64,000 nt of DNA, taken from positions 1 through 64,000 of the IMG/VR virus record IMGVR_UViG_3300037225_000856; one strand, 5' to 3'. Below, in pieces: positions 20,674 through 53,296 of the stretch. The notes under the pieces are model-generated. The model ran no database searches, was not told where the DNA came from, and saw only the letters and a program-made list of their open reading frames with translations. Numbering within the stretch: position 1 is the stretch's first letter; the number at the start of each line of letters is the position of its first letter. The translations under genes were made by a program, and so were the position numbers. The DNA comes from a virus.

Positions 20674-21686
20674 ATTTACTTATTGCATATGGAACTCGTC
20701 CTGAGTTTGTCAAAACTAAACCAATAATTAATGAATTGAATAAAAATAATTTTTTATTTAAAACATTATTTACTGGTCAACATGTGGATTTATTAAAAGA
20801 ATGTCCCGCAAATTATGTAACCAGCATCATTAATTCGGGTATTCAAGAGAATAGATTAGACGAAATCGTTCAATCAATAATGGGCGTGTTTACGGGAGCA
20901 AAAATGTTTTATGATAATATAACTCATGTAATGGTTCAGGGAGATACCACATCAGCAATGGCAATTGCATTATCTGCATATCATCATGGTATAAAAGTTA
21001 TTCATCTGGAAGCAGGACTTAGAACATATGATAAAAAAAATCCATATCCTGAAGAAGTAAACAGGAGAATTATTTCAGAAATTGCTGATATTCATTTATG
21101 TCCGACAGAATTAGCAAAACAAAATTTATTGAATGAAAGAATTGATGATGATATTTATGTGGTTGGCAACACAGTGATCGATAATTTATTATCTTATAAA
21201 GATAAATGTGAATATACTAATAAGATTTTAGTTACTCTACATAGGCGTGAGAATCATCACTGGATGGACAAATGGTTCATTGAATTAGATAATTTGGCTA
21301 AATTATATCCAGAATATGAATTTATTCTACCAATTCATCCTAATCCAAATGTACAAAAATGGAAGCATTTATTAAAGAATGTTGTGATTATTGACCCACT
21401 TCCATATGAGAAAATGCTTGATTTACTGGTTCAATGCAGACTTGTAATTACTGATAGTGGTGGACTTCAAGAAGAATCTTGCTTTTTCAATAAAAAATGT
21501 TTAACTTGCCGAATTGTAACAGAACGTCCAGAAGCAATTGGATTAAGCACTTTTATGGTTGAAAGACCAAATATGTTAATTGGGGCATTTATACATCACA
21601 TTAATAATTATAAAATAAATGTAGAATGTCCATTTGGTGATGGACATGCTGCAGAAAAAATAATGAAGATATTAAAAAATTTATAA
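20670..21686 (+). CDS. wecB: UDP-N-acetylglucosamine 2-epimerase (non-hydrolysing)
   Basis: GTRPE, TGQH, QGDT, HLEAGLRT, PEEVNR, HRREN, TDSGGLQEE, TERPE, PFGDG motifs. Confidence 0.95.
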   Translation: MNLLIAYGTRPEFVKTKPIINELNKNNFLFKTLFTGQHVDLLKECPANYVTSIINSGIQENRLDEIVQSIMGVFTGAKMFYDNITHVMVQGDTTSAMAIALSAYHHGIKVIHLEAGLRTYDKKNPYPEEVNRRIISEIADIHLCPTELAKQNLLNERIDDDIYVVGNTVIDNLLSYKDKCEYTNKILVTLHRRENHHWMDKWFIELDNLAKLYPEYEFILPIHPNPNVQKWKHLLKNVVIIDPLPYEKMLDLLVQCRLVITDSGGLQEESCFFNKKCLTCRIVTERPEAIGLSTFMVERPNMLIGAFIHHINNYKINVECPFGDGHAAEKIMKILKNL

Positions 21687-22468
21687 TGAAAAAAGTATTA
21701 GTAATTGGTGACGGTTGCAAAGATGTGTTTCAATATGGAAAGTGTGAAAGGTTAAGTCCTGAAGCACCAGTACCTATATTTAAACCAACAAAAGCAAATA
21801 ATAATGGTGGCATGGCAGTGAATGTTTATAATAATCTTAAAGCATTAGGTGTTGAATGCGATATTTTAACCGAAAGCGGTATTACAAAAACCCGTTATGT
21901 TGATGAAATCAGTAATCAAATGCTACTCCGAGTTGATGAAAATGATATGATTTTTACGAGTCCAAGAATGTATGATAAAATCATGAATTTTGATTATAGT
22001 GCATATGATGCAGTAGTTATATCTGATTATGATAAAGGTTTATTAAGTGAAAAAATGATTAAACGTATTGCAATTAGCAATCCATTGACGTTCATGGATA
22101 CCAAGAAGAATATTAGCAATTGGGCAACATTTATAAAATTCATTAAAATAAATAAAAAAGAGTTTGATCAAAATGAAGGTTATTTAACACTTCATTTTCC
22201 AAATGACGTTATTGTGACATTAGGTGAAGCTGGTGCGATGCGTTATTATAATGATAATGGCGCATGTAGAACTGAGATGTATCCAAATGTTAATGAACAT
22301 CCTGTACGTGATCTTACAGGTGCAGGTGATACTTTTTTTGCAGGACTTGTTGCGAAATTCATAGAAAATAACGATATTTGTGATGCAATTATATTTGCAA
22401 ACAAATGTGCTGCTTGGGCAGTAACGCAAAAAGGTGTGGCAGTGGTTGATAGATATAAAATTAAATAA
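21686..22468 (+). CDS. Heptose-7-phosphate kinase (HldA/RfaE kinase domain, PfkB family)
   Basis: RLSPEAPVP, KTRY, LLRVD, SDYDKG, DLTGAGDTF motifs. Confidence 0.88.
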   Translation: MKKVLVIGDGCKDVFQYGKCERLSPEAPVPIFKPTKANNNGGMAVNVYNNLKALGVECDILTESGITKTRYVDEISNQMLLRVDENDMIFTSPRMYDKIMNFDYSAYDAVVISDYDKGLLSEKMIKRIAISNPLTFMDTKKNISNWATFIKFIKINKKEFDQNEGYLTLHFPNDVIVTLGEAGAMRYYNDNGACRTEMYPNVNEHPVRDLTGAGDTFFAGLVAKFIENNDICDAIIFANKCAAWAVTQKGVAVVDRYKIK

Positions 22469-22469
22469 T

Positions 22470-22847
22470 ATGATAGAAATTACACATGTAACAAATAAAA
22501 AAATACACGTACCGAAAGCATGGGGCGAAGAAGTTATTATTCACAATGGAGAAGATTATTGTGGAAAATTATTGCGTTTTAGAAAAGGTGGTATGTTCAG
22601 CCTACATTTTCATTCTTTAAAGACGGAATCATTTTATGTTAATAAAGGTATTTTTAACTTAACCACAATTGATACAAGAACTGCTGCAAGACAGCATATT
22701 AGTCTTGTAGAAGGAGATATTATTCATATTGAACGCAATACTCCACATCAACTGGAAGCACTTGAAGAAAGTGAAATATTTGAAGTAAGCACACCACATA
22801 ATGATAATGATAGTTATAGAATAGAGAAAGGAGATAGTCAATGTTAA
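22470..22847 (+). CDS. Cupin sugar-phosphate isomerase-like protein
   Basis: PKAWG.E, SLHFH..K.E, PHQL, EVSTP...DSYR resemble the type II mannose-6-phosphate isomerase cupin domain. Confidence 0.75.
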   Translation: MIEITHVTNKKIHVPKAWGEEVIIHNGEDYCGKLLRFRKGGMFSLHFHSLKTESFYVNKGIFNLTTIDTRTAARQHISLVEGDIIHIERNTPHQLEALEESEIFEVSTPHNDNDSYRIEKGDSQC

Positions 22848-23131
22848 TTTACGTAGATATTGATAACACAATTTGTACAACTATTGATAGTGATTATAAG
22901 AATTCCAAACCGATTCAAGAAAATATTGATAAAATAAATCGACTTTATAATGAAGGCAATACGATTGTTTATTGGACTGCTCGTGGCAGAGTTACACGTA
23001 AAAATTGGTCAATTTTAACTCGTAAACAACTGAGAGATTGGGGATGTTTGCATCATAAACTAGATATGAGTAGCAAACCTGCATATGATAGAATTATCGA
23101 TGATAAAGCGTTTAAAATTAATGAATTATGA
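22841..23131 (+). CDS. Small HAD-family phosphatase
   Basis: VDIDNTIC, WTARG, KP, IDDKA (HAD motifs I-IV). Confidence 0.8.
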   Translation: MLIYVDIDNTICTTIDSDYKNSKPIQENIDKINRLYNEGNTIVYWTARGRVTRKNWSILTRKQLRDWGCLHHKLDMSSKPAYDRIIDDKAFKINEL

Positions 23132-23562
23132 ATATTTGGACTAATGGTTGTTTTGACATCTTACATACAGGGCATATTGAGTTATTGAATTATGCAAAGA
23201 TGTTTAATCCAGATTTTGAAATATTTTATACACCACTTATTGTTCACAACACTTTATTTGTTGGACTTGATAGTGATGAAAGAGTTAAAAATTTAAAAGG
23301 AGATAAACGACCAATAAATGACATTGACACACGTTTAACAATAATGCGTAATTTGAGAATGGTTGATGAAGTATTTATATTTAATACAGATGATGAACTG
23401 CGACAATTAGTTAAAGAATTGAGTATTGATTATATGATTGTTGGTAATCAATATCAAGATAAAGAAGTAATTGGACATGAGAATTCGAAATATGGTGTAA
23501 TCTATTATAAAGTAGACGAGAGGTCAACAACAAATATTATTGAAAAAATTAAAAATTCATGA
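23128..23562 (+). CDS. Heptose-1-phosphate nucleotidyltransferase (HldC/RfaE2-like)
   Basis: TNGCFDILHTGH, GLDSD, LKGDKRPIN, STTNII motifs. Confidence 0.88.
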   Translation: MNIWTNGCFDILHTGHIELLNYAKMFNPDFEIFYTPLIVHNTLFVGLDSDERVKNLKGDKRPINDIDTRLTIMRNLRMVDEVFIFNTDDELRQLVKELSIDYMIVGNQYQDKEVIGHENSKYGVIYYKVDERSTTNIIEKIKNS

Positions 23563-24467
23563 TAGTAGTAACAGGTGGTGAAGGATTTATTGGCAAAAAT
23601 CTTGTTAAAGAGTTGGAAAGACAGGGCAATATTGGTGTTGTAAGTCTTGATACAAAAACCGAAAATCTTGGTTTTATTTATTCTTGGCTTTTAACCTATG
23701 CTGATCAAATTGATTGTATATTTCACCTTGGAGCAATTACCGATACTACTGAAATGAATAAGAGTTTATTCGATGAATATAATGTTGAATCTTCAATTTT
23801 TATCTGGAATTTATGTTCAGATTGGGGTATACCATTGATTTATGCAAGTTCTGCAGCAACATATGGTGATGGTAAAGAAGGATTTGATGATGAGAAGGAT
23901 ATTATTAATCTTAAACCATTAAATCCATATGGCTGGTCAAAACAACAATTTGATATATGGGCAGAAATTCAAGAGCAACAACCACCAAACTGGTATGGTC
24001 TGAAGTTTTTCAATGTATACGGGTATGGAGAAGCACAGAAAGGTAAAATGGCATCAGTTGCTTTTCACATGTTCAATCAGATTGACGAATCAAAAAAAGT
24101 TAAATTATTCAAATCACATCGTCCAGATTATGAAAACGGTGAACAAAAAAGAGATTTCATTTATATTGATGATATAGTTGATGTTTGTTTATTTTTATAC
24201 GATAAAAAACCACTTTCAGGTATTTATAATGTAGGTACTGGAAAAGCACGTACATTTAATGATCTTGGCAGCGCAGTTTTTAAAAGTCTTGATATTCCGC
24301 TTTTAATTGATTATATTGACACTCCGATTTTAATCAGAGATAAATATCAATATTTTACTGAAGCTAAGATTAATAAGTTGAGGATGACTGGTTATAAAAA
24401 ACCTTTTAGTGAGTTAGAAGATGGTATTTCGAAATATATAAATAAATTAAATGATAAAACTTGCTAA
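23559..24467 (+). CDS. hldD: ADP-L-glycero-D-manno-heptose 6-epimerase
   Basis: FHLGAITDTTE, YASSAATYG, PLNPYGWSK, FFNVYG, KGKMASV, RDFIYIDD, YQYFTEA motifs. Confidence 0.92.
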   Translation: MIVVTGGEGFIGKNLVKELERQGNIGVVSLDTKTENLGFIYSWLLTYADQIDCIFHLGAITDTTEMNKSLFDEYNVESSIFIWNLCSDWGIPLIYASSAATYGDGKEGFDDEKDIINLKPLNPYGWSKQQFDIWAEIQEQQPPNWYGLKFFNVYGYGEAQKGKMASVAFHMFNQIDESKKVKLFKSHRPDYENGEQKRDFIYIDDIVDVCLFLYDKKPLSGIYNVGTGKARTFNDLGSAVFKSLDIPLLIDYIDTPILIRDKYQYFTEAKINKLRMTGYKKPFSELEDGISKYINKLNDKTC

Positions 24468-27108: not shown

Positions 27109-28584
27109 ATGAAAGTATTTAAACCAACAGGTAGTAAAGAAAGATTTGCTGAAATATTTCAGGGAGTCAATAAAGTTAAATTAAATGAAGGTTTCGGACA
27201 GAGTTATAATCCACAAGCTGTTCTTGAAATGGCATTTGAAGGACTAAAAAATGGTACTCTTAATATTGTGCATAGTAATTCACAAGGAGAGGGCGAACAA
27301 AGTTTTATTGAACTGGTTTGTAAAGACAAACAAGGCAATAACATAACATTTACATTTAAAACATTATCAAGTGCTGACGATCAGGAAGGTGTTTATAATA
27401 TTGATAAAACCATAATGACAAATTTTTCATTTGATGACCAAACTGGTGAAGATAGTGTTGAAATGGATGAAAATGCATTAAAACAATTTAATGCACAACA
27501 TGCCAATGATTTATTTGATGCTGTTAAAGAATATATTGATGTTGAAGAAGAAGAACCAGCAATAGATGAGTTATATGAAGATGCAATTAGGAAAATTGAT
27601 TCGAGTCCATTTGGTAAAGACAGTTTTGATAAATTGCAAACAGGTAAAGCATATGCTGATGAAAAACCAGTTAATCCTGCAATAAGAGTAAAATCTCCTG
27701 AATTAGATAAATTTGTTAGTGAAGATGCAAACAGTCTGTTACATTTTTCACAGGCAGCACGTGATGCAGGTAGTAGTTTTAAAACAAAATTAGCTGTGTC
27801 ATATCAACATGTACTTGCTAATACACTTAAAGATATTGGTATTACAATTCAAAACATTGAAGACATTGATAACCAGAAATATAAAATTACTGCAGAATAC
27901 CAAGGACAACCACGTACATTTACAATTAATGGAGGTAAATTTAATAATGCTGCAAAAGTAAGAGAATTGCTGAAAAAAGCATTGAAAATTGGTGTTGAGG
28001 AAAGTTTATATGAAGAAGAAGCAAAAATAGCTGGTGATTATCCAGACCCAATGGGTAAGAAATTCAAACCAAAAGAACATTATCCAAAGAAAAAGAGAAA
28101 ACCGCAAACTACTGTTAAATTAAGTGAACAGGATGAAGAAAATAATTATGAAGAAACATCTGATTCAAATATTCCAATAGATAAAAGAGCAAAAAAAACA
28201 GCACAGTCCGATATGCACAAAGAATTTAATCGTACAATACCATATGATACAAAATTTAATGCTGGCATGGATGAAAAAGCTGAAGAACCATTAACTGGCG
28301 ATGATAATGTTACAGACACTGAATTTATGAATAAAGAGCGTCAGGGATTACAAGGTGGTGAAGATGATGTTAATCCAGATACTACCAACGATGTTAACCC
28401 AGAAACAGAAATGGGTACTGAAAATGATGTTGAAGCAGGTGATGGTATGACTCCTGAACCAGATTTTGATAAAATGGGAATGGGAATTGGTAGTGATTGG
28501 GATAAAAAGACAAGAGGAACTGATAATGAGCTAGAAAATGATGATGTTATTAATAATTTTAATATGAATTTTTTCTTGAAATGA
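27109..28584 (+). CDS. Large acidic putative head protein
   Basis: The start MKVFKPTGSKERFAEIFQGVNKVKLNE parallels the previous gene; acidic low-complexity C-terminus. Confidence 0.5.
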   Translation: MKVFKPTGSKERFAEIFQGVNKVKLNEGFGQSYNPQAVLEMAFEGLKNGTLNIVHSNSQGEGEQSFIELVCKDKQGNNITFTFKTLSSADDQEGVYNIDKTIMTNFSFDDQTGEDSVEMDENALKQFNAQHANDLFDAVKEYIDVEEEEPAIDELYEDAIRKIDSSPFGKDSFDKLQTGKAYADEKPVNPAIRVKSPELDKFVSEDANSLLHFSQAARDAGSSFKTKLAVSYQHVLANTLKDIGITIQNIEDIDNQKYKITAEYQGQPRTFTINGGKFNNAAKVRELLKKALKIGVEESLYEEEAKIAGDYPDPMGKKFKPKEHYPKKKRKPQTTVKLSEQDEENNYEETSDSNIPIDKRAKKTAQSDMHKEFNRTIPYDTKFNAGMDEKAEEPLTGDDNVTDTEFMNKERQGLQGGEDDVNPDTTNDVNPETEMGTENDVEAGDGMTPEPDFDKMGMGIGSDWDKKTRGTDNELENDDVINNFNMNFFLK

Positions 28585-29447
28585 AAACAAATTTATGTAA
28601 ATGCGGTTGTGGTAATCTATGTGAACAAAACTACCTAAAGGGACATGGTCGGAAGGGTAAAAAAAATAGTATTGAGCATAATATTAAAATATCTAAGGGA
28701 AATATTGGTAAAAAATGTAGCTATGAAACTAAAGAAAAATTAAAGGAAATTAATTTAGGTAGAAAGCATACAGAAGAAACTAAGCAAAAGATTTCAAAAA
28801 TAGCCAAAGAAAAAGAATTTGGAAAATGGATGATAGGAAAAGAAGTGTCTGAAGAAACGAGAAATAAAATAAGCGAGAGCAATATTGGACGTGTAACATC
28901 AGAAGAAACGAGAAATAAAATATCGTTAGCAAATTCTGGAGAAAATAACGGAATGTATGGTAAAACCCATTCTGATGAATATAAAGAAACGTTGAGAAAT
29001 AATGCCGTAAATCTTAGAAAAAATGCACATACACCAGAAGCAATTGAAAAAATGAGAATTAAAATGATTGGGAGAAAAACATCTTCAGAAATTAAAAGAA
29101 AAATGAGAATCTCAAAAATTGAATTTATTAAAAATAAAAATGGTGGGATTTGTCCAATGCATAATATTAATGCTTGTAAATATTTAGATGATTTATCTAA
29201 AATTAATGAGTGGAATTTACAACATGCATTAAATGGTGGTGAATTTTATGTTTCAGAATTGGGATATTTTGTTGATGGATATGATATTAATAAAAATATT
29301 GTTGTTGAATATGACGAACCGCTTCATTATAATAGAAACGGTGAATTAAAAAATAAAGATATTATTAGACAAAACGAAATAATTAATCATCTAAGATGTA
29401 AATTTTTTAGATATAATGAAAAGAAAGGAATTTTATATGAAATTTAA
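28581..29447 (+). mobile_element. NUMOD3-repeat homing endonuclease with C-terminal PD-(D/E)XK/Vsr-like domain
   Basis: CKCGC, repeated (H/T)SEETR.KIS, N.MYGKTHS, VDGYD....VEYDE..H motifs. Confidence 0.8.
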
Positions 29448-41635: not shown

Positions 41636-42727
41636 ATGAAGGGATTAACAACATATGAATTTATAATGAAAGCAGGATTTGTGCATGGTGATAGGTATGA
41701 TTATTCTAAAGTTGATTATATTAATAATAGGACAATGGTAGATATTATATGCAAAGAACATGGATTATTTCAACAAAATGCTTCAAACCATCTTGCTGGT
41801 CAGAATTGTCCTATTTGTATGGGTAGGGGAAAAGGTAATAGTGAGAGATTTATTAATGCTGCAAAACAAAAACATGAAGATAAATATGATTATTCTTTAG
41901 TTAAATATAAAGGTAGTAAATCTAAAATAAATATTATTTGTAAAGAACATGGTGTTTTCGAGCAAAGACCCACAAGACATTTATGCGGTGATGGTTGTCC
42001 TAAATGCAATGGTGGTGTTAAATCAAATCATAATGAATTTATTCAGAAGGCAAATGTTATACATGATAATAAATATGATTATTCATTAGTTGATTATATT
42101 AATTCAATAACAAAGGTTAAAATAATTTGTAAAAAACATGGTATTTTTGAAATGAAACCAAATTCTCATTTATGTGGACAAGGTTGCTATATGTGTGGTA
42201 TTGAAAAAAATACTCATACCACAGCACAATTTATTGAAAAAGCACAAAAAATTCACGGTAATATATATGATTATAACTTAGTTGATTATATTCATAATAA
42301 CATAAAAATAAAAATAATTTGTCGTGAACATGGAATTTTTGAACAAAAACCCTATTCGCATTTAAATGGTAGAGGTTGTTCTAAATGTAAAACCAAATCA
42401 AAAGGTGAATTATTTATTGCCAATTGGCTAAGTCAAAATGTTATTAGTTTCGAAGTTCAAAAATCATTTATTGATTGTAAAAATGTGCTGCCTTTAAGAT
42501 ATGATTTTTATTTACCTAAATATAATATGCTTATTGAATATGACGGTGAACCCCATTTTAGAGAAGTTGCTTATTTGGGCGGTAAAAGAGGTTTTGAATT
42601 AAGACAAACCAATGATAAATTAAAAACAGATTATGCAATAAACAATAACATTAATTTATTGCGTATTCCTTATACTGAAAGAAAATGTCTTTCAAAAATA
42701 TTAAAAAATAATATTGTAACTACTTAA
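41636..42727 (+). mobile_element. Homing endonuclease with four zinc-binding repeats (DUF723/CapR-like) and a Vsr/DUF559-like nuclease domain
   Basis: Four copies of YDY..V.Y...IIC..HG.F......HL.G..C..C, then SKGE, YDFYLP, IEYDG..H, LLRIPY. Confidence 0.82.
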
Positions 42728-42739
42728 TAATCAAAGCAT

Positions 42740-43861
42740 ATGACCTTCTTCAGTCGTCCCGATCTCAGTTCGGTCCAATTTAAACAATTACCCGATTCAA
42801 TATTAAATTTGTCTGGTCAAACCCGAATAGAAACAACAACAGGTTTAACACTTGCAAATGGTAGTGGCAGCACTATTATTATTAATGCAAAAGGTAGTGA
42901 TCTTGTTGGTAATGTATTAACTTTTGATGGCACTGAAATTAAATTAATGCCATCTACATCATCGGGTATTGTAGTATATAATCCGCCATATAGATCGCCA
43001 GCATCTATAACATTAGGTGGAATTATTACTGGAACTACGCTTACAGGAAGAACAATATCTTCAATTATTGAACAATTATTAGTTCCAACAGTAAATCCTA
43101 CTTTAAAAGCACCTTCAAGCACATTTAATGTTTCATTATCAAACCCATATGAAATAGGTTCTATTGTAAGTGTAGTTGGTTGTACATGTCTTAGTGTAGG
43201 TTCTATTAATCCACAATATTCTTCAGCGTCATCATGCAGAAGTAATGGTGCAATATCGCATAATTATATTGATTTTAATGGTGGTACTTGTAGTTGTTTT
43301 GGAAATACATGTACTTGTACACGCTCATTACCAGCATATACGGTTGTTGCAGGTATAAGAACAGCATATGGTTCTGTTTCATATTGTGCAGGTGTTCAAC
43401 CTAAAAATAATTGCGGTTCAAACTATTTAAGTCCATTAACTTCTGGAACTACAACTCCAATAGGTGTTATTGTTTGTGGTTTATATCCATATTTTTATGG
43501 CAAAGTTGCAAGTGGTGGTTGTCCTGCAGGTGTTAATAGACCAACACCAACGTGTGCATTGGTAATTAGCGGAACAAAATGTGTTTGTGACAGTAGTAGT
43601 ATTATATATATTAATTTTAATAGTACCTCAGATGATTATTTGTTTTTTGCAATACCAAGTGCTTCAGCAGCTAAAACATGTTGGTATATAAATGCACTTA
43701 ATAATGGTGCAATTGGTGGTGCAGTAAGTGCTGGTGGTAATTTATTCCCAGCACTTGCTTCTGTGAATCCAGTAACAACAGCATGTTGGGCAGGTCAAAC
43801 ATATAATGTTTATATAAGTAATTATCAATCGGCAGTAAATACATTAATGACAATATATTAA
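42740..43861 (+). CDS. Virion fibre-associated protein, copy A (Cys-rich C-terminal two thirds)
   Basis: S/T/G-rich. It shares PY.(Y/W)G...RPT.TCA.VI.GTK...INFNS...DYL.FAIP...AKTCW..N..NNGAIGG.VS...NLFPA with 48147..49136. Confidence 0.6.
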   Translation: MTFFSRPDLSSVQFKQLPDSILNLSGQTRIETTTGLTLANGSGSTIIINAKGSDLVGNVLTFDGTEIKLMPSTSSGIVVYNPPYRSPASITLGGIITGTTLTGRTISSIIEQLLVPTVNPTLKAPSSTFNVSLSNPYEIGSIVSVVGCTCLSVGSINPQYSSASSCRSNGAISHNYIDFNGGTCSCFGNTCTCTRSLPAYTVVAGIRTAYGSVSYCAGVQPKNNCGSNYLSPLTSGTTTPIGVIVCGLYPYFYGKVASGGCPAGVNRPTPTCALVISGTKCVCDSSSIIYINFNSTSDDYLFFAIPSASAAKTCWYINALNNGAIGGAVSAGGNLFPALASVNPVTTACWAGQTYNVYISNYQSAVNTLMTIY

Positions 43862-43886
43862 TAATAAAAATTAAAAATATAAAAAA

Positions 43887-46802
43887 ATGGCAATAATATT
43901 AAATGATAATCTTAAAATAAATGCAGGTAAACCAATTGATTCGAGATATTTAACAACTGGAAATACTATATATACTTCAACTGGTGCAACCAATTCAGCA
44001 ATTCCAATTCCTTTAAGGTATACTGGTTTAACAGTTAATATTTTAGGCACTGAATATTGGTATAAAACTGGCGTTGCTGACATTAATTTAATTCAGAAAA
44101 TATATAATAGTATAATACCAATAGGTAATTTTATTACTGGTGCGACAAATATTGGATTTTTTAGTGGACATACAAGTATTCAAACACTTAATATTACAAC
44201 ATCAAGTGGCATAATTGGAAATTATTTAGATTATACTGGTAGTTATTCTTCATTATATAATTATTATTATAGAGGTTTTGATCAAAAAATTCATATTGGT
44301 ACACCAAATGATAACATACCAAAAAGAGGTTATGTAAAAACAGTATTACCAGTTGAATCATGGATTTGGAATCAATATACTGGTGGTAGTGGAAATTTAC
44401 TTGGTTGGATTTTTGTTCAAGGTGATATTTCATTAAAAATTGGACAAACTGTAAATGGTGTGATATATTATACTGGTTCGTCTCAAGTTTATACACAAAC
44501 TGCATGGAGTGCTCCAGCTAATAATGGAGGAAAAGCAGTTATTAATTCAGTTCTTGGCAGTTTAACAACTGGTACTACAATAAGTATTGGAGGACCGGTT
44601 TTTGCCACTAAAACCAATAATGTATTGAATTTTAGAACAATTCAAAGTAAAACTCCAAATATATTGAATATAAGTTCTGATGAAGCATTTATTTATTTAT
44701 CTGGCACAACACAAGCAGCACAAATAAATCAAGGTATTAATATTGGTAGTGGCGTTGGTATTTATGGAGGTTTAAGTGGTACATCTCTTCAATTTAGAAG
44801 TATTGTTGGTAGTGGTAATACAACAGTTGGTTTAAATGGAAATACAGTCGCAATTTATTCAAGCGGTGGTGGTACAATTACAGGTGCAACAAATGGTTTA
44901 AATATTAACGGTAAAAATGTTCAATTAGGTGGCACTATAACTATACCTACAATAATAAAAGATTCGAGAATAGTGCCTGTTGGTATTGAATATGACAGTA
45001 ATTATAATGTTACATTTAGTAGTCGTTCATTAGTAGATAAAGCATACGTAGATGCTGTTGCAGCAGGACTTGTTCCTAAATTAGCTGTTGAAGTTGCAAC
45101 AACAAGTAATATTACATTAAGTGGCATTTTAACAATTGATGGTGTTTCTACAATAAATAATATGAGAGTATTAGTTAAAAATCAAATAAGTGGTCAAACG
45201 AATGGAATATATGTTGTTAATAGTGGTGGTACTTGGAGTCGTTCAATAGATTTTAATTTTGTTCCTTCTGGTGAAGTTGTTCAAGGTGTATTAGTACCTG
45301 TTATTAGCGGTAATACACAAAAAAATACTCTTTGGGTATTAGTAACACCAAATCCAATTATTAGCGGAGTTACTTCAATAATATTTGGTTTATTTAGTAG
45401 TTCAAATTTTATTGCAGGTACTGGTATAAATATTGGGGGTAGTACGATATCAACAGATACACTAACTCAATCAATAATTAATTCTGCAATTACTGGTGCT
45501 ACAAACGGGTTAACAAAAATTAGTAATAGAAAAGTTTGTCTTGGTGGTACATTAAGTGATGACGTTACTATTAATTTAAATTCATGTAAAATAAATTTTA
45601 TTAATGGTAGTGTAGTATCATGTGGTGCAACAAGTCACGGTTTTGATAGTTATAATGATTATAAATTGAGTGGTCAGACATTTATAAGTGTACCTAGTAA
45701 AAATTTTGCTTGTGGTAATTTAGCTGTTGGTTATCAAGCACTTTATAATAACACAACTGGTTATGGTAATTTAGCTATTGGTTATGGTGCACTTTTAAAT
45801 AATACTTGTGGTAATCGTAATATTGCAATTGGTTATAATGCACTTTGTTCTAATACAACAGGAAGTACTAATATTGCAATTGGTAATTATGCACTTTTAC
45901 GTAATATTTATGGTTGTAATAATATTGCAATTGGTTGTAGTGCACTTTCTTATAACACTTGTGGTTGCAATAACATTGCTAATGGTTATGGTACACTTTT
46001 ATGTAATAAATTTGGTTGTAATAATATTGCAATTGGTTGTAGTGCACTTCTTTATAATACTTGTGGTTGTAATAACATTGCTAATGGTGGTTTTGCACTT
46101 TATAATAATATTAGTGGTTCTTCTAATATTGCAATTGGATGTGGTACACTTTTATATAATAAATTTGGTTGTAATAATATTGCAATTGGTTATCAAACAC
46201 TTTGTAGTAATATAACTGGAAGTACTAATATTGCAATAGGATATACTGCAGGATATTATGAAACAGGTTCAAGTAAATTATATATTGCAAATTCATCCAC
46301 AACTCATCCATTAATTTTTGGTGATTTTTCAACTAACTGTGCAATAATTTACGGTGCATTTAAAACAAGTGGTGCTACATCACTCCTTGTAGCTCCTGCT
46401 GCTGGTACAACCTCTGATGCAATATTGGTTTGGAATAGTAGTGATAAGTTAATTAAAACAATGCCATATATAAGTGGTGGTACTGGCGGGGGTGATAAAA
46501 ATAATATATATTCCAAAACCATAATTACTGGCAATACATTATTAACAACAGGTAGCACATATGTGATATTAGCATCAGGCACTTCAATAACAATTACATT
46601 ACCTACAACACCACTTACCGGACAAGTATTTAAAATTAAAGATGCCTATGGCAATGCATTGACTAACAATATAATTATTAATGCTGGTTCAGGTAGAACA
46701 ATTGATGGCTCACAATGTGCATTAATTAATACAAATTATGGTGCTCTTGAACTTATGTTTGGTGCTACATGTAAATGGTTTAATTTGGCTTTTATTAACT
46801 AA
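43887..46802 (+). CDS. Tail fibre/spike-like protein, copy A
   Basis: LVDKAYVD, VATTSNITLSG..TIDGV...RVLVKNQ...NGIY fibre module; 14-aa NIAIG..AL..N repeats; ITLP...IKD C-terminal domain. Confidence 0.75.
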   Translation: MAIILNDNLKINAGKPIDSRYLTTGNTIYTSTGATNSAIPIPLRYTGLTVNILGTEYWYKTGVADINLIQKIYNSIIPIGNFITGATNIGFFSGHTSIQTLNITTSSGIIGNYLDYTGSYSSLYNYYYRGFDQKIHIGTPNDNIPKRGYVKTVLPVESWIWNQYTGGSGNLLGWIFVQGDISLKIGQTVNGVIYYTGSSQVYTQTAWSAPANNGGKAVINSVLGSLTTGTTISIGGPVFATKTNNVLNFRTIQSKTPNILNISSDEAFIYLSGTTQAAQINQGINIGSGVGIYGGLSGTSLQFRSIVGSGNTTVGLNGNTVAIYSSGGGTITGATNGLNINGKNVQLGGTITIPTIIKDSRIVPVGIEYDSNYNVTFSSRSLVDKAYVDAVAAGLVPKLAVEVATTSNITLSGILTIDGVSTINNMRVLVKNQISGQTNGIYVVNSGGTWSRSIDFNFVPSGEVVQGVLVPVISGNTQKNTLWVLVTPNPIISGVTSIIFGLFSSSNFIAGTGINIGGSTISTDTLTQSIINSAITGATNGLTKISNRKVCLGGTLSDDVTINLNSCKINFINGSVVSCGATSHGFDSYNDYKLSGQTFISVPSKNFACGNLAVGYQALYNNTTGYGNLAIGYGALLNNTCGNRNIAIGYNALCSNTTGSTNIAIGNYALLRNIYGCNNIAIGCSALSYNTCGCNNIANGYGTLLCNKFGCNNIAIGCSALLYNTCGCNNIANGGFALYNNISGSSNIAIGCGTLLYNKFGCNNIAIGYQTLCSNITGSTNIAIGYTAGYYETGSSKLYIANSSTTHPLIFGDFSTNCAIIYGAFKTSGATSLLVAPAAGTTSDAILVWNSSDKLIKTMPYISGGTGGGDKNNIYSKTIITGNTLLTTGSTYVILASGTSITITLPTTPLTGQVFKIKDAYGNALTNNIIINAGSGRTIDGSQCALINTNYGALELMFGATCKWFNLAFIN
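45712..46260 (+). repeat. Coding 42-bp (14-aa) tandem repeats, N(I/L)A(I/N)G..(A/T)L..N..G
   Basis: About 13 degenerate copies of AATATTGCAATTGGT...GCACTT. Confidence 0.85.
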
Positions 46803-46893
46803 TAATTTATAATTTATAATTTATTGGTGATAATAATTAAAATGAAAATTATTATATTCTTATTTTTTTCTTGTAAATTGAGTTTTTCATGAT

Positions 46894-46909
46894 TATCTTT
46901 GTATTTATA
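46894..46909 (+). promoter_or_regulatory. Composite host-type and late-type promoter for the GT9-like gene
   Basis: TATCTTTG is immediately followed by TATTTATA. The same composite occurs at 41292-41306 before the tRNA. Confidence 0.55.
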
Positions 46910-46946
46910 AAAAAATATAAAAAATTATAAATTAAATTAAAACTCA

Positions 46947-47885
46947 ATGATAGTAAACAGTAAAAAAACAGATAATGATAGGTATGTAATCGCTGAAATT
47001 TTTGGCGGACATGGAAAAACCATCGTTTCAACTGCAGTAATTCGTGCAATTAAGAAGCAGTATCCTGATTATAAAATAATTGTAATTGCCAGTTGGGATG
47101 GAAGTTTTTTTTATAATCCTGATGTTTTTAGGTTCTTTTTACAAAATCAAATACCACAATACTTCAAAGAGGATTATCTTAAAGAAGATACTATTATAAT
47201 GAAACATGATCCTTATAATGAAACAAATCATATTCTTAGAAAAGAACATCTGACTGAGACTTGGTGTAAAATGTTTAATGTACCTTATGATGGTTATAAA
47301 CCTAAAATCTATTTAAACCCACGTGAACTTGAAATAGCGAGAGATAAAATAAAACCAGATAATCGTCCTATTATGCTTCTCCAGACACACGGAGGAAGCA
47401 ATCAACAATATTCGAAAAAATCTTGGTATAGGGATATGCCTATAGAGACAGCGCAAAAATTAGTAAATTATTTTAATAAGTCCTACCGTATACTTCATAT
47501 TAAGTCACCAGAGCAACCAATTTTACAAGGTGTTGAACCTCTTACTTTACCATATAGAGAATTATATGCCGTATTTCCACTTTCAACAAAAAGACTGTTC
47601 ATAGATTCTTTTGCTCAACATGTTGCAGCAGCATTGGATTTACCAAGCACTGTTGTTTGGATTGGTAATTCACCCAAAGTATTTGGTTATCCTGAAAATA
47701 TAAATATATTGCCGAATGCGAATATTATAAACAATCTTGATAAATTTACATACTTAGTTGATGATATTTCTGGCATGGTGCAAGCCTTCCCGTATGATAC
47801 TGTTAATTTGTTCGATATAAATAAAATTATTGAAGCAGTAAACAAACAACCAGTTCCAGATGTTTCAAAGATGAATTTCATGTAA
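46947..47885 (+). CDS. GT9-like (ADP-heptose-dependent heptosyltransferase family) glycosyltransferase
   Basis: N-terminal GGHGK.I..TAVIRAIKKQYPDYKI, HLTE, P.IYL, K.W, and C-terminal IDSFAQHVAAALDLPSTVVW matching the GT9 DS..xH.AAA...P signature. Confidence 0.75.
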   Translation: MIVNSKKTDNDRYVIAEIFGGHGKTIVSTAVIRAIKKQYPDYKIIVIASWDGSFFYNPDVFRFFLQNQIPQYFKEDYLKEDTIIMKHDPYNETNHILRKEHLTETWCKMFNVPYDGYKPKIYLNPRELEIARDKIKPDNRPIMLLQTHGGSNQQYSKKSWYRDMPIETAQKLVNYFNKSYRILHIKSPEQPILQGVEPLTLPYRELYAVFPLSTKRLFIDSFAQHVAAALDLPSTVVWIGNSPKVFGYPENINILPNANIINNLDKFTYLVDDISGMVQAFPYDTVNLFDINKIIEAVNKQPVPDVSKMNFM

Positions 47886-47924
47886 AGAGAATTAGTCATC
47901 ATTTTTAATGTTGTTTATTTTTTT

Positions 47925-47953
47925 AAAAACCCATTGTTATCAGTGGGTTTTTT
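47925..47953 (+). terminator. Intrinsic terminator
   Basis: AAAAACCCATTG-ttat-CAGTGGGTTTTTT. Confidence 0.8.
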
Positions 47954-48146
47954 GTTTTGGTTGTCATTTGTCAATTATTGTTTTAAAAGTATTTATAGAC
48001 ATTAAGATTAATTAATGTGAAAATAATGGTTCAATTATATTTATATTAATATTTTAAAGCTGTAATGGTAATTATTAATTAATAAAAACTATTTATAAAT
48101 AACTAATTAAAACTATTTATAGATAGATGATTTAAATATAAAAAAT

Positions 48147-49136
48147 ATGGGTTCTAATACAAAGATAATTTTAAGTGATAGTAAAGCATATCAAACAACT
48201 GGTCAAACACTAACATTATCAGGACATACAAAAATAGCAACTGTCGGTGATTTAAAATATGTAACACATCCAACATTTAGTGAAGATACTCAAATTATTG
48301 ATAAAAAATACGTTGATGATAGTGTTGTAACTACAGGAAGTACTATATATAATTTAGTATCACCATCTACAGTCACTGTTGGCGGGTTGACATCTGGAAC
48401 TGTATTAACAGGTAAAACTTCAAATGAAATACTTAAAGAAATTTTAGTAATGTATTTATTACCTTCTTTCAGTAGTTTTTGTAATAATGTTAGTACTCCT
48501 CTTGAAGTTGGTACTACAATAAGTGGTTCAAAATCATTTAGTTTTGGTTTTGCTAATGCAGGTAATGTTTGTGCAAATACTTTATCTATCAGAGACGTTA
48601 GTATAGGCAGTAATATTGCAACTGCTTGTCCAATATCATCACCTCAATCTGCAACTATTAATGCAAAAACATTTGCTTCTTGTGGTAATACTCAAGTTTG
48701 GTGTGGCTGTGCTACAAATACATGTGGTGCTCAAATAGGTTCAAGTAGTTATACAATAACAGGATTGTTACCTTATTATTGGGGTGTGTGCACATGCCCG
48801 GGTGCTGCTGGTGCTGGTCGTCCAACAGCAACTTGCGCTATGGTAATTGGTGGAACTAAAATACTTGCAAGCAGTGAAGCAATAAGTATTAATTTTAATA
48901 GTGGTGTTAATGATTATTTATGGTTTGCAATTCCTGCAACCGTTGCTGCTAAGACTTGTTGGTGTGTAAATGGTATTAATAATGGTGCAATTGGTGGCGG
49001 AGTAAGTCCTGCATGTAATCTTTTCCCTGCTCCTAATTCAATTAGTGTTACTACTGCTTGTTGGAGTGGTTGTAATTATTGTGTTTATATTAGTAATAAA
49101 CAAACATGTGCAACATCATCAATGTCATTAACATAA
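48147..49136 (+). CDS. Virion fibre-associated protein, copy B (Cys-rich)
   Basis: Paralog of 42740..43861 (shared C-terminal ~115 aa); IIDKKYVD fibre motif. Confidence 0.6.
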   Translation: MGSNTKIILSDSKAYQTTGQTLTLSGHTKIATVGDLKYVTHPTFSEDTQIIDKKYVDDSVVTTGSTIYNLVSPSTVTVGGLTSGTVLTGKTSNEILKEILVMYLLPSFSSFCNNVSTPLEVGTTISGSKSFSFGFANAGNVCANTLSIRDVSIGSNIATACPISSPQSATINAKTFASCGNTQVWCGCATNTCGAQIGSSSYTITGLLPYYWGVCTCPGAAGAGRPTATCAMVIGGTKILASSEAISINFNSGVNDYLWFAIPATVAAKTCWCVNGINNGAIGGGVSPACNLFPAPNSISVTTACWSGCNYCVYISNKQTCATSSMSLT

Positions 49137-49144
49137 TAAAAATT

Positions 49145-49184
49145 AAAAGATATTTATAAAAACAAAAAGATATTTATAAAAACA
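49145..49184 (+). repeat. Perfect 20-bp tandem duplication containing the TATTTATA motif
   Basis: AAAAGATATTTATAAAAACA x2. Confidence 0.85.
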
Positions 49185-49195
49185 AAATATAGAAA

Positions 49196-52100
49196 ATGGC
49201 AATAGTTTTAAACGATAACTTAAAAATTAATGTTGGTAATCCGATTGATTCTAAATATTTAAATTCTTTAAATCAACCATATACTGGTGTTACTGCTGTT
49301 AATACGGCAATAGTATTGTCACAAAGATATGTTGGTTTAACAGTTAATGTAAATAAAATAGAATATTGGTATAAAACAGGTGTTACTGATACTGCTTTAG
49401 TTGTTAAAGATAGTGGTATTGCAAATACCGGACTTACTATAGCAATTAATGGTTTAACAAAGGTTGGTAATGTTGTTAAATTAGGTGGTACATTAACTGG
49501 AGATACTACAATTAATTTAGCAACACATAATTTAAATTTAACTAATGGTAATTTAAATTTAACAAATGGCAATATACTATTAATAACAGGTAGTTCAATA
49601 CAATGGAGCGATGGTTCATATATTACAAATACTATTAATGGAATAAGTATAATTGATGATGATTTAATTGTTAGTGGTAATACAACAAGCGTTAAATTTA
49701 TTGAAAATGGTGTTTGTCTTGCAAATAAATATCTTGCAACTGGAGCAACAAGTGTTAATTCTAAAGCATTATGTGGTTGTATACCAAGTTGTTTTTTAGG
49801 TGCAAATTCTTGTGCAGTAGACAGTGCTAAATTAGGTAATAAATTACCAGCTTATTATCTTAATACTGGCACTACTATTATTTGTGCTTGTGATAGTGCT
49901 AAATTGAATAATAAATTACCTGCATATTATCTTAATACTGGTTCAACAGCTTTATGTGCTACTTGTGCAGGTAACGCTTCAACATTAGTCGGTTGTACAC
50001 CAAATTCATTTTTATTGTCTGGTGGTACAGCAGTAAATTCATCGAAATTAGGTAGTCATTTACCTGCATATTATCTTAATACAGGTAGTACAGCAATATG
50101 TGCAACAACAGCAATTAATTCAAAAGCATTATGTGGTTGTGTACCTGCAAGTTTTCTTCTTAGTGGTGGTACAGCTAAAAATTCATTATGTTTAGGCGGT
50201 AATTTAGCTAATACTTATGCATCACTTGCTTCACCTAATTTTACAACATGTATATGTACTCCCGTAATGTGTTCAACAGGTGTAGTTAAAGGAACAATAA
50301 TAAGTGGTTCAAGTTGTGTTGAATCACCAGTTATTCAATTAACAACAGGTGCTGGAGCAGGATGTGTTTTCACGTCAAATGCTACTGGTTGTGGTATTTG
50401 GTGTACTCCTGTTGCTGGTGGAATTCTATGGAGTGGTTCAACTGTTAATGGTGTTGGCACTTATTTGTCCGCATCAAAAATTTATTCAAATGTTAATATG
50501 ACATTTGATGGCACAAAATTGGGTGTAACTGGCAATATATGTGCAAGCACTTGCTTATGTTCTTCAATTACAATTGGTACATCATGTGTTTGCAGTCCTA
50601 TTATATTAGGTTCTAGTTGTGTATGTGGTTTTATTGTTTGTAGCAATACGTGTATTCTTGCAGGTACTTGTGTTACAGGTACAATTATGTGCGCATCTTC
50701 ATGTGTGAGAAGCCCATTAATTTCTGGTGGAACTGTTTGTGGTTTAACTGCTGTATGTGGTGGAATACATTGCGCAACTACTTGTTTTGCTGGTTCAGGT
50801 GCTGGTTTAACAGGCACTGCAGCCAGTTTAACTGTTGGTTGTGCGACTTGTGCTGTTGGAGCAAAAAATCTTTGTGGCTGTGTACCTACATCATTTTTAC
50901 TTAGTGGTGGTACTGCTGTATGTTCAACCTGTGCTGGCAATGCAAGTACCGTGGCTGGTTGTACTCCTTCATGTTTCTTGGGAGTAACCGCATGTGCTTG
51001 TGATTCGAAATGTTTAGGTGGTCATTTACCTGCATATTATCTCAATACTGGTAGTACTGCAATATGTGCAACTTGTGCAATAGGTGCTAAAAACCTTTGT
51101 GGTTGTGTTCCAGCATCGTTTTTACTTAGTGGTGGTACTGCAAAAAATAGTACTTGTTTAAACGGACAATTAGCAAGTTATTATGCACCAATAGCAAGTC
51201 CTAATTTTACAACTTGTATTTGCGCACCTATTGTTTGTGCAACTACTTGTTTTGTTGGTAGTGGTGCAGGTTTAACTGGCACTGCAGTTTCACTAAAAAG
51301 TAATGATTCTTGTTGTTTAAATGGAGTATTAGCTGCAGGTTATCTTTTATCTGGTGGTACAGCTAAAAATTCATTATGTTTAGGTGGTAAATTACCTGCA
51401 TATTACCTTAATACAGGTACTACAATTACTTGTGCAAATGATTCAGCAAAATTAAATAATAGATTACCAGCATATTATCTTAATACTGGCAGTACTGCAT
51501 TATGTGCAACTTGCGCTGGTAATGCATCAACATTAGTAGCTTGCACACCATCATGTTTTTTAGGTGCTACTGCTTGTGCAGTTGATAGTGCAAAATTGGG
51601 TAATAAATTACCTGCTTATTATCTTAATACTGGTAGTACAGCAATATGTGCAACAACTGCAGGAAATGCATTATGTTTAGGTGGTTCACTTGCTGCTTGT
51701 TATGCTACAAAAGCATTAGCAATTACTGGTGCTACAAGTTTAGGTAGTGGATGTGTTGTTTATTCAACAGTTGCTAATAATAACTTAAAATTTAAGTCAT
51801 TAAGTGGTGGAAGTGGTATTTCAATGAGCAGTACTGCAAATGTAATTAATATTTGTGGTATTGGTTGGTCAAATTTAACTAATGGTTCAACTGTTGTTGG
51901 TTGTGGAACAGTTGCAAGTGGCAACACATCTTTATGTAATACATTTATTGGTGTTTGTGCAGGTAAGAATATTAATATTGCTGGTTGTGATAATACTGGT
52001 ATTGGTTTTCAAGCACTTTACAGTAATACTTGTGGTTTTGGCAATGTTGCAATTGGTTTTCAAGCACTTCAAAGTAATATTAGTGGTCTTGGCAATGTTG

Positions 52101-53296
52101 CAAATGGTTATAAAGCACTTCAAAGTAATATTTGTGGTTATAGTAATATTGCAATTGGTACTAATGCACTTCAAGGTAATATTTGTGGTAGTTGTAATAT
52201 TGCAATTGGTCCTGATGCACTTTCTTGTAATAGTTGTGGTTCATATAATGTTGCAATAGGTACTGGTGCACTTGAAGCTAATTGTTGTGGTGGTTGTAAT
52301 GTTGCAATTGGTAATAGTGCACTTGAATTTAATATTAGTGGTGTTGGCAATGTTGCAAATGGTTTTCAAGCACTTTTGTATAATATAATTGGTTCTAATA
52401 ATATTGCAATAGGTTTTAATACACTTCGATGTAATGGAGAGTCTTGTAATAATATTGGAATAGGTTCTAATGCACTTTTTAATAATACTTGTGGTTATTG
52501 CCTTATTGCAATAGGTCATCAAGCATTATGCGGTAATATTTGTGGTTGTGATAATGTTGCTGTGGGATATCAGGCACTTTATTTTAATACTGGTGGTACT
52601 AATAATATTGCAATTGGTTCTCAAACACTTTATTGTAATATAATTGGTTGTGATAATATAGCAAATGGTGTTCAAGCACTTTATTTTAATACTGGTGGTA
52701 ATGATAATATAGCAAATGGTGTTCAAGCACTTTATAATAATATTTGTGGTTGTGATAATATAGCAAATGGTGTTCAAGCACTTTATAATAATACTTGTGG
52801 TAATGCTAATATTGCAAATGGTGTTCAAGCACTTTATAATAATACTTGTGGTAATGCTAATATTGCAAACGGTACTGCTGCACTTCTGAATAATACTTGT
52901 GGTAATGCTAATGTTGTTAATGGTCATTATGCACTTTATTGCAATACTCATGGTTCATATAATGTTGCAATAGGTTATCAAGCAGGGTATTCACAAGTTA
53001 CTGGTAGTACAAGTATATATATAGGTAATTGTGCTGGTTATAACGAAACCGATGGATGTAGACTTTATATTGCAAATTCAGGTACTGTTAATCCATTAAT
53101 TTATGGTGAATTTGATACTAAAAGATTAGTAATAAGTGGTACTACTGAAATTGTAAATGGTACTTGTAATTATTTATATTTAGGCAATAAAGACACTGAT
53201 GGCAGTTGGAGATTTGCAATAAGTGGAGGAACAGACTTCATTATTCAAAAAAGAATAGCAACGGTATGGACAACAAAATTATATGTGTTAGGATAA
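49196..53296 (+). CDS. Very cysteine-rich tail fibre-like protein, copy B (1366 aa)
   Basis: The N-terminus MAI.LNDNLKIN.G.PIDS.YL...RY.GLTVN....EYWYKTGV is shared with 43887; seven LPAYYLNTG repeats; a long 14-aa NIAIG repeat array. Confidence 0.75.
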   Translation: MAIVLNDNLKINVGNPIDSKYLNSLNQPYTGVTAVNTAIVLSQRYVGLTVNVNKIEYWYKTGVTDTALVVKDSGIANTGLTIAINGLTKVGNVVKLGGTLTGDTTINLATHNLNLTNGNLNLTNGNILLITGSSIQWSDGSYITNTINGISIIDDDLIVSGNTTSVKFIENGVCLANKYLATGATSVNSKALCGCIPSCFLGANSCAVDSAKLGNKLPAYYLNTGTTIICACDSAKLNNKLPAYYLNTGSTALCATCAGNASTLVGCTPNSFLLSGGTAVNSSKLGSHLPAYYLNTGSTAICATTAINSKALCGCVPASFLLSGGTAKNSLCLGGNLANTYASLASPNFTTCICTPVMCSTGVVKGTIISGSSCVESPVIQLTTGAGAGCVFTSNATGCGIWCTPVAGGILWSGSTVNGVGTYLSASKIYSNVNMTFDGTKLGVTGNICASTCLCSSITIGTSCVCSPIILGSSCVCGFIVCSNTCILAGTCVTGTIMCASSCVRSPLISGGTVCGLTAVCGGIHCATTCFAGSGAGLTGTAASLTVGCATCAVGAKNLCGCVPTSFLLSGGTAVCSTCAGNASTVAGCTPSCFLGVTACACDSKCLGGHLPAYYLNTGSTAICATCAIGAKNLCGCVPASFLLSGGTAKNSTCLNGQLASYYAPIASPNFTTCICAPIVCATTCFVGSGAGLTGTAVSLKSNDSCCLNGVLAAGYLLSGGTAKNSLCLGGKLPAYYLNTGTTITCANDSAKLNNRLPAYYLNTGSTALCATCAGNASTLVACTPSCFLGATACAVDSAKLGNKLPAYYLNTGSTAICATTAGNALCLGGSLAACYATKALAITGATSLGSGCVVYSTVANNNLKFKSLSGGSGISMSSTANVINICGIGWSNLTNGSTVVGCGTVASGNTSLCNTFIGVCAGKNINIAGCDNTGIGFQALYSNTCGFGNVAIGFQALQSNISGLGNVANGYKALQSNICGYSNIAIGTNALQGNICGSCNIAIGPDALSCNSCGSYNVAIGTGALEANCCGGCNVAIGNSALEFNISGVGNVANGFQALLYNIIGSNNIAIGFNTLRCNGESCNNIGIGSNALFNNTCGYCLIAIGHQALCGNICGCDNVAVGYQALYFNTGGTNNIAIGSQTLYCNIIGCDNIANGVQALYFNTGGNDNIANGVQALYNNICGCDNIANGVQALYNNTCGNANIANGVQALYNNTCGNANIANGTAALLNNTCGNANVVNGHYALYCNTHGSYNVAIGYQAGYSQVTGSTSIYIGNCAGYNETDGCRLYIANSGTVNPLIYGEFDTKRLVISGTTEIVNGTCNYLYLGNKDTDGSWRFAISGGTDFIIQKRIATVWTTKLYVLG
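49750..51690 (+). repeat. Dispersed coding repeats A.(D/N)S..LG..LPAYYLNTG and LCGC.P.SFLLSGG
   Basis: Seven LPAYYLNTG copies and several FLLSGGTA copies in the translation. Confidence 0.8.
51980..53040 (+). repeat. Coding 42-bp (14-aa) tandem repeats
   Basis: More than 20 copies of N(I/V)A(I/N)G..AL..N..G; near-identical NIANGVQALY copies around 52650-52850. Confidence 0.85.

Follow-up and report, generated by a model that had tools for sequence, protein, structure and literature searches.

Why should a phage carry a glycosyltransferase gene in the middle of its tail fibre genes, and why are the proteins around it so rich in cysteine (Cys)? The question is raised by the virus record IMGVR_UViG_3300037225_000856 from IMG/VR (112 kb, CheckV completeness 37%). 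Its first 64 kb, with about 29% GC (guanine plus cytosine), form the window that we analysed. Between positions 42740 and 53296 the window holds five open reading frames (ORFs), P0001 to P0005, all on one strand (Table 1). A first-pass annotation, made from the sequence alone, had placed a GT9-like glycosyltransferase, P0003, among four Cys-substituted fibre genes, and had proposed that the enzyme puts a dense glycan coat on their Cys residues. All five ORFs are present at the positions that it gave.

The reading that we favour, with a probability of about 0.5, is that P0003 is a fibre-directed enzyme of the GT-B fold that glycosylates the neighbouring fibres, a variation on the theme known from AAH and TibC. 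The locus would be the tail-fibre module of a phage of about 300-365 kb, probably with a host among the Bacteroidota. The module would consist of two paralogous gene pairs, in each of which the gene for a small Cys-rich protein precedes that for a long fibre with a distal beta-roll of the YadA-head type. The pairs would flank the conserved GT-B gene, which has the same upstream motif as structural genes and whose product, a predicted cytoplasmic enzyme, would glycosylate the fibre proteins within the cell before virions are assembled. The evidence suggests that the fibres are sugar-coated; their Cys residues, at variable repeat positions, may be the acceptor sites or have another role. Of the earlier proposal, the GT9-type fold, the link to fibres and the Cys enrichment hold; the link to heptose is weak, and the TibC/AAH features are missing.

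The glycosyltransferase is found with fibre genes in different phages

Scanning IMG/VR, we found 59 loci with a homolog of P0003. In 57 of them, mostly from phages of 300-365 kb, the glycosyltransferase is 58-92% identical to P0003 (65-92% when only complete proteins are counted), while two loci (L058 and L059) are distant, at 36%. Where the flanks of the 57 loci suffice, the enzyme stands among genes that resemble P0001, P0002, P0004 and P0005 but are only 30-60% identical to them. The fibre cluster begins with a P0001-like gene in most related loci. Within this clade no relative without the glycosyltransferase was found: the contigs that reach beyond the fibre cluster all carry it, and the others end inside the cluster.

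The same neighbourhood is seen in the pelagiphages HTVC111P and HTVC112P, 32-kb podoviruses from GenBank. Both have a fibre with the same repeats, and the stop codon of the fibre gene overlaps the start of a P0003 homolog with both motifs, GGxGK and IDSxxxH. In the pelagiphage paper this gene is labelled merely 'GTF'. The analysis supports a link between glycosyltransferase and fibre that recurs in the clade of huge phages, among pelagiphage podoviruses and on further contigs.

The tail module of these pelagiphages (L126:204-6843 and L127:1-6798) also contains an HlyC/RTX-type lysine acyltransferase, followed by a tail protein, the repeat fibre and the glycosyltransferase homolog. This gene order suggests that their tail proteins are both acylated and glycosylated.

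The placement bears on a rival explanation, that the enzyme acts on a non-protein acceptor (the core of host lipopolysaccharide (LPS), capsule or a lipid-linked glycan), for example in a surface change late in infection, and that its position among fibres is incidental. It would fit the name ADP-heptose:LPS heptosyltransferase that JGI gives to some homologs, the relatives that are fused to GT25 (an LPS-type glycosyltransferase) or FkbM domains, the large sugar-nucleotide cassette at 1-25 kb of the window and the terminator that P0003 has of its own. However, adjacency to fibres is kept across unrelated phage types, down to the stop-start overlap in pelagiphages, and P0003 lies about 20 kb from the cassette. 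Further, its bacterial homologs have a solenoid protein, an NHL protein with a type IX secretion system (T9SS) sorting domain, a methyltransferase and a sulfotransferase as neighbours, and do not lie in an LPS core locus. We regard this explanation as unlikely, though it should not be dropped.

P0003 is a distant relative of the GT9 heptosyltransferases

The top Foldseek matches of the P0003 model (predicted local distance difference test, pLDDT, 81) are GT9 structures: 3tov (E 1.7e-12), WaaF 1psw, WaaC 2h1h and TibC 4rap. With hhalign, we aligned a profile of 45 sequences of the P0003 family to E. coli WaaC, WaaF and WaaU with 88.8% probability. The donor motif D220-S221-x3-H225, at least 90% conserved in the family, aligns to D261-T262-x3-H266 of WaaC, and many residues are invariant or nearly so among homologs down to about 27% identity.

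P0003 scores 13.2 bits (E 0.054) against the GT9 family PF01075, under the cut-off of 22 bits, and among its relatives only one fused member passes, with 22.9 bits. The match to TIGR02201 spans only 30 residues, and a PDB sequence search with the P0003 profile gave no match. The family, which comprises 723 clusters at 50% identity, is captured by no Pfam model, and we found no paper that describes it or the Cys pattern. No canonical GT9 enzyme is encoded in the 112-kb record. The label 'GT9-like' can be kept for the GT-B fold, the profile and the donor motif, but neither for the Pfam score nor for the catalytic Asp, which is replaced. From sequence and model, P0003 appears to be a distant offshoot of the GT9 heptosyltransferases. 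It shares with WaaC and WaaF the C-terminal domain as well as the fold and the donor motif, and differs from them in lying in a fibre context instead of an LPS locus.

A closer kinship to AAH and TibC finds no backing. These enzymes (BAHT) have a four-Cys iron finger, a beta-barrel before the catalytic domain and Asp110 (PMC4358343). P0003 is only 312 amino acids (aa) long, has a single Cys, and its Rossmann beta-1 starts already at residue 12, so it has neither iron finger nor beta-barrel; it has Lys at the place of Asp110. We therefore rejected membership in the TibC/AAH group. What remains alike is the arrangement, in which a GT9-related GT-B gene adjoins a gene for a beta-solenoid protein, as for AIDA-I and TibA. 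AAH and TibC hyper-glycosylate the adjacent adhesin in the cytoplasm, while the fibres are a putative substrate of P0003; the partner here is a phage fibre with YadA-head-like repeats and not a type Va autotransporter.

Could P0003 have kept the GT-B fold as a non-catalytic assembly factor or chaperone for fibres? The loss of the catalytic Asp and the unusually high conservation (65-92%) within a variable fibre cluster would agree with such a role. On the other hand, the family shows no variation in the donor-binding motif or at many polar residues, and several members (P0128, P0130, P0142, P0162, P0211 and P0218, one of them 1169 aa long) are fused with GT25 or FkbM methyltransferase domains. 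Fusions of this kind, with partners from glycan building, suggest a catalytically active glycan enzyme. We find a chaperone very improbable.

Cysteine content follows the enzyme family

The four proteins encoded around P0003 are as extremely Cys-rich as the first-pass annotation had said, with 2.2-7.5% Cys (Table 1), against an average of 1.48% for some 100 ORFs of the 112-kb record and 0-0.8% in its head and tail-type ORFs. The Cys-free N-terminal parts of P0002 and P0005 are likewise as described, and all the motif pairs in which Cys takes the place of another residue (NNTTG/NNTCG, KNVQLGG/RKVCLGG and DSAKLG/DSKCLG) are found in the translations. Mutational bias was considered as the cause of the excess and rejected, because Cys keeps to certain repeat positions and there is no rise in Phe or Tyr, whose codons are T-rich too.

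Fibres of this repeat type are poorer in Cys when the enzyme is absent. Eight such fibres from cultured or GenBank phages without the glycosyltransferase contain 0.07-1.1% Cys, while the fibres beside the enzyme in HTVC111P and HTVC112P contain 1.5-1.9% and the neighbouring tail proteins 0.2-0.4%. In an arbitrary sample of 80 IMG/VR loci, retrieved by a degenerate DNA pattern for the repeat, the median is 0.36% (maximum 2.4%) for the 68 repeat fibres whose locus lacks a glycosyltransferase, and the five fibres with one have 0.8, 2.2, 3.6, 3.7 and 3.7% (Mann-Whitney p 5e-4). Large Cys-rich ORFs (at least 600 aa and at least 3.5% Cys) are also more frequent near the enzyme than far from it in viral loci (p 0.0015). 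The excess of Cys is thus a genuine and specific feature that goes with this enzyme family.

Bacterial homologs are common in Chitinophagaceae, mainly in Flavipsychrobacter, with several copies per genome. Many of these loci encode a GGxxN solenoid of 700-1300 aa (3-6% Cys, no signal peptide), an NHL propeller with a T9SS sorting domain, the glycosyltransferase, an FkbM methyltransferase and a sulfotransferase. The solenoids have no detectable homology to the phage fibres and lie within one or two genes of the glycosyltransferase homologs. An operon of this kind is seen at L067:2915-10517, and others in L073, L076, L090, L094, L100 and L123; the solenoids have the conserved start M-x-x-F/Y-N-x-F-C-D-P. 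To judge from its genes, the operon looks like an undescribed system for a glycosylated (methylated, sulfated) surface protein.

A comparable neighbour is found in a contig from a metagenome-assembled genome of Omnitrophota (L113:2835-8945), where a GpJ-like tip protein of 1703 aa, with 4.1% Cys and a CxC-rich C-terminus, directly precedes the homolog. Two contigs binned as 'Iainarchaeum' (L062:5183-9649 and L063:1-6160) have a Cys-rich protein (4.5-5.9%) before a fused glycosyltransferase of 579 and 1173 aa, respectively. At its end the L062 protein has an S74 chaperone-like sequence, as phage fibres typically do, and these contigs are therefore probably mis-binned phage DNA.

Several observations weigh against a fibre-directed enzyme with Cys-rich partners. 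The co-occurrence of enzyme and Cys that the first-pass annotation had asked for is borne out for the fibres near the enzyme, but when lineages are counted, as clusters at 55% glycosyltransferase identity, only 6 of the 17 have a Cys-rich neighbour (at least 300 aa and at least 3% Cys), which makes the association by lineage only suggestive. Most fibres with the enzyme belong to a single phage clade, so that the clade itself may contribute to the association. The near-versus-far contrast is weak in bacterial loci (Fisher p 0.07), and homologs without a Cys-rich neighbour are found in the marine virus AG-345-L05 and in L108, L111 and L164. Further, the catalytic base of WaaC, D13, aligns to K24 in the GGxGK loop of P0003, where Lys is at least 90% conserved, so the catalytic Asp is lost. 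This glycine-rich loop resembles phosphate-binding loops for lipid-linked acceptors in other GT-B enzymes.

Cysteine occupies the variable positions of the fibre repeats

The AlphaFold2 model of P0005 residues 860-1366, calculated as a monomer from an alignment with 19 homologs, has pLDDT above 90 over the repeats and a strict strand periodicity of 17 residues. The PDB entry that best matches this model is 7o23 (E 1e-4), the BpaC head, from a trimeric autotransporter adhesin; YadA (1p9h) and CbpF are also listed, and the region is predicted to form a left-handed parallel beta-roll of the YadA-head type. By sequence, P0005 and P0002 match no Pfam family at E up to 0.01, Hep_Hag and YadA_head included, and a PDB sequence search with P0005 gave no match. 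The likeness to the heads of YadA and BpaC is the predicted 17-residue beta-roll; the differences are that P0005 is part of a phage fibre, has no Hep_Hag match and carries abundant Cys at variable positions.

These positions can be seen in a set of 542 repeats of 17 residues from the fibres of the phage clade, with the pattern N-[IV]-A-x-G-x-x-A-L-x-x-N-[TI]-x-G-x-x. The nine conserved positions (1-5, 8, 9, 12 and 15) are free of Cys (0%). At the variable positions it reaches 28% at 16, 11% at 11, 10% at 14 and 5-8.5% at 6, 7 and 10. Control repeats from fibres without the enzyme have Ser, Thr, Asn, Ala or Gly at the Cys-bearing positions, and Cys is 0% there at 6, 7, 11, 14 and 16. The sequon N-x-(T/S/C) at repeat positions 12-14 was dropped as evidence of N-glycosylation, because it is equally present in fibres without the enzyme.

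Cys is also among the least conserved residues. Between fibre homologs of 35-70% identity it is retained in only 31% of the aligned pairs, which places it 17th among the 20 residue types, and is replaced by Ser, Thr, Lys and Gln at about background rates. In adjacent coils, Cys at the same position co-occurs at 1.3 times chance at position 16, and within a single repeat co-occurrence is random. Since Cys is abundant yet poorly conserved, placed at variable positions and unpaired, fixed disulfide or metal sites are argued against.

Two explanations of the Cys residues have to be weighed here. In the first, they are structural or redox-active (packing of free thiols or small residues in beta-roll corners, opportunistic disulfides after release, or metal binding) and unrelated to the glycosyltransferase, which would modify Ser, Thr or something else. 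Position 16 holds small residues only, in fibres with and without the enzyme alike; P0005, P0001 and P0004 have many CxC and CxxC spacings, and an association by lineage that is only suggestive also agrees with this explanation. However, residues that form structural disulfides or bind metal usually belong to the most conserved ones, which the Cys residues here do not, and there is no excess pairing in the repeats beyond the weak stacking at position 16. The homologous fibres of 68 other phages manage without Cys. An Erv1/ALR-type oxidase was not found in five complete relatives, by a search without positive control, and thioredoxin is present in two of the five. We find a structural or redox role doubtful, though it should be kept in mind.

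In the second explanation, the Cys thiols are themselves the acceptors, and the fibres carry a dense S-linked glycan coat. It would account for an enrichment that follows the presence of the enzyme and is restricted to variable positions held by Ser, Thr, Asn or Ala in fibres without it. The low conservation, with exchanges mostly to Ser, Thr, Lys and Gln, and the weak, non-obligate pairing would also be expected, and a thiol nucleophile might tolerate Lys in the place of the general-base Asp. Against it, we know of no S-glycosyltransferase of the GT-B or GT9 type, and the bacterial examples of S-glycosylation that we found are glycocin peptides. The fibres contain 19-25% Ser plus Thr, so O-acceptors abound, and position 16, the chief Cys site with its small residues only (C/S/N/T/G), could be a restricted or partly buried corner. 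We consider S-linked glycans unlikely. The same low standing is given to a broader proposal, that the widespread GGxGK offshoot of GT9 is a protein S-glycosyltransferase decorating surface Cys of beta-solenoid fibres and adhesins in huge phages, pelagiphages and, together with methyl- and sulfotransferases, Chitinophagaceae.

Cross-links of the lanthionine type between Cys and Ser or Thr were also considered, but the idea was dropped when no dehydratase or cyclase family turned up in Pfam scans of the genes on either side.

The ADP-heptose pathway is accessory

The ADP-heptose pathway that had been reported from the window is indeed there: a kinase (TIGR02198), a small HAD protein, an adenylyltransferase (TIGR02199) and HldD (TIGR02197, 337 bits, above the cut-off). 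No GmhA was seen in this row of genes. A cupin (22434-22847) and a 96-aa HAD fragment (22841-23131) lie at the places expected of GmhA and GmhB.

The tie between this pathway and the glycosyltransferase proved weak. In 10 complete relatives the enzyme is always present, while the kinase is found in 4 and HldD in 2, which indicates that the glycosyltransferase is core, and that the heptose pathway, a possible supply of the donor, is accessory. The donor may instead be provided by the host, or be a sugar other than heptose.

The sugar-nucleotide cassette of the first 25 kb also encodes a RuBisCO-like protein (18320-19495; form III/IV-like, below NCBIfam cut-offs), beside an FkbM methyltransferase and a nucleotidyltransferase.

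Signals around the glycosyltransferase gene

P0003 had been credited with its own composite promoter and terminator. Downstream of the gene there is a terminator-like hairpin, with a stem of 12 bp and a T run, but a scan of the window for sigma-70-like promoters gave matches at chance level. As such matches are at chance in this AT-rich DNA, a composite promoter is not endorsed.

Another motif, GTATTTATA, occurs 24 times in the window, with 7.4 copies expected, and 21 of the 24 are on the plus strand. It is found before structural genes and likewise before P0003. Sites of the form GTATTTATW include 25100, 30283, 31900, 41559, 46901, 47989 and 59450 and often lie just upstream of genes; by its distribution GTATTTATW is a candidate phage promoter element.

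Relation to known glycosylation systems

Glycosylated virion proteins are known from mycobacteriophages, where a shielding role has been proposed (Freeman et al. 2023, as told in PMC12619734). There the glycans are reported on the C-termini of capsid and tail-tube subunits; the candidate target in our case is a fibre, and the enzyme is GT9-like.

Phage fibres decide host range, and to our knowledge virion glycosylation has so far been demonstrated in only a few phages. If there is a conserved glycosyltransferase dedicated to fibres, which phages of 300-365 kb have as a core gene of their clade and which abundant marine pelagiphages carry too, then adsorption, resistance to proteases and recognition by antibodies would all gain a further layer.

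In bacteria, the known cases in which a Cys thiol receives a sugar are the glycocins, such as pallidocin. Their enzymes act on small peptides with one or two defined Cys, while the neighbours of P0003 have 330-1370 aa; further, glycocin S-glycosyltransferases have the GT-A fold and P0003, by Foldseek, has GT-B. If the fibre Cys are acceptors, protein S-glycosylation, so far a matter of a few bacteriocin peptides, would reach large surface proteins as well. The virion would then be the first with S-linked glycans, and the enzyme the first protein S-glycosyltransferase of the GT-B fold.

Other features of the locus

The positions of the features are collected in Table 1. A megablast search of the fibre region against GenBank phages gave no match. 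Of the four genes that had been called fibre genes, P0002 and P0005 deserve the name, as their PHROG matches are to fibre, spike and virion-structural families and the N-terminus is common to both. P0001 and P0004, paralogs with 37% identity, have no Pfam or PHROG match and were assigned to no family; an Atlas search with P0004 gave only viral clusters of hypothetical proteins.

Table 1. Features of the fibre cluster and related elements, with positions in the window (nt, nucleotides).
Feature	Position	Strand	Description
P0001	42740..43861	+	373 aa fibre-cluster protein; Cys-free to residue 147, Cys-rich after; 16/373 Cys (4.3%)
P0002	43887..46802	+	971 aa fibre; phrog_23837, 4636, 6002; N-terminal 550 aa Cys-free, predicted 17-residue beta-roll repeats with Cys from residue 551 (first Cys); 21/971 Cys (2.2%)
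GTATTTATA motif	46901..46909	+	46 nt upstream of P0003 start
P0003	46947..47885	+	312 aa predicted GT-B glycosyltransferase, distant GT9 relative; motifs G20-G-x-G-K24 and D220-S-x3-H225
Terminator-like hairpin	47925..47952	+	12-bp stem, then T run; 3' of P0003
GTATTTATA motif, second site	47989..47997	+	upstream of P0004
P0004	48147..49136	+	329 aa, P0001 paralog; 17/329 Cys (5.2%)
P0005	49196..53296	+	1366 aa fibre; first Cys at residue 174; 102/1366 Cys (7.5%); C-terminal part predicted YadA/BpaC-head-like 17-residue beta-roll
ADP-heptose synthesis genes	21686..24467	+	kinase, cupin, small HAD, adenylyltransferase, HldD

The fibre cluster is flanked by an HNH homing endonuclease directly upstream and a LamG protein downstream. 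In total three ORFs of the homing-endonuclease type are seen in the window, at 41636-42727, 3312-4220 and 28581-29447 (HNH, LAGLIDADG and NUMOD3), the HNH one being that which adjoins the cluster. Outside the window, at record positions 95593-96525, an ORF of 310 aa with 4.5% Cys may be a third gene of the P0001/P0004 type.

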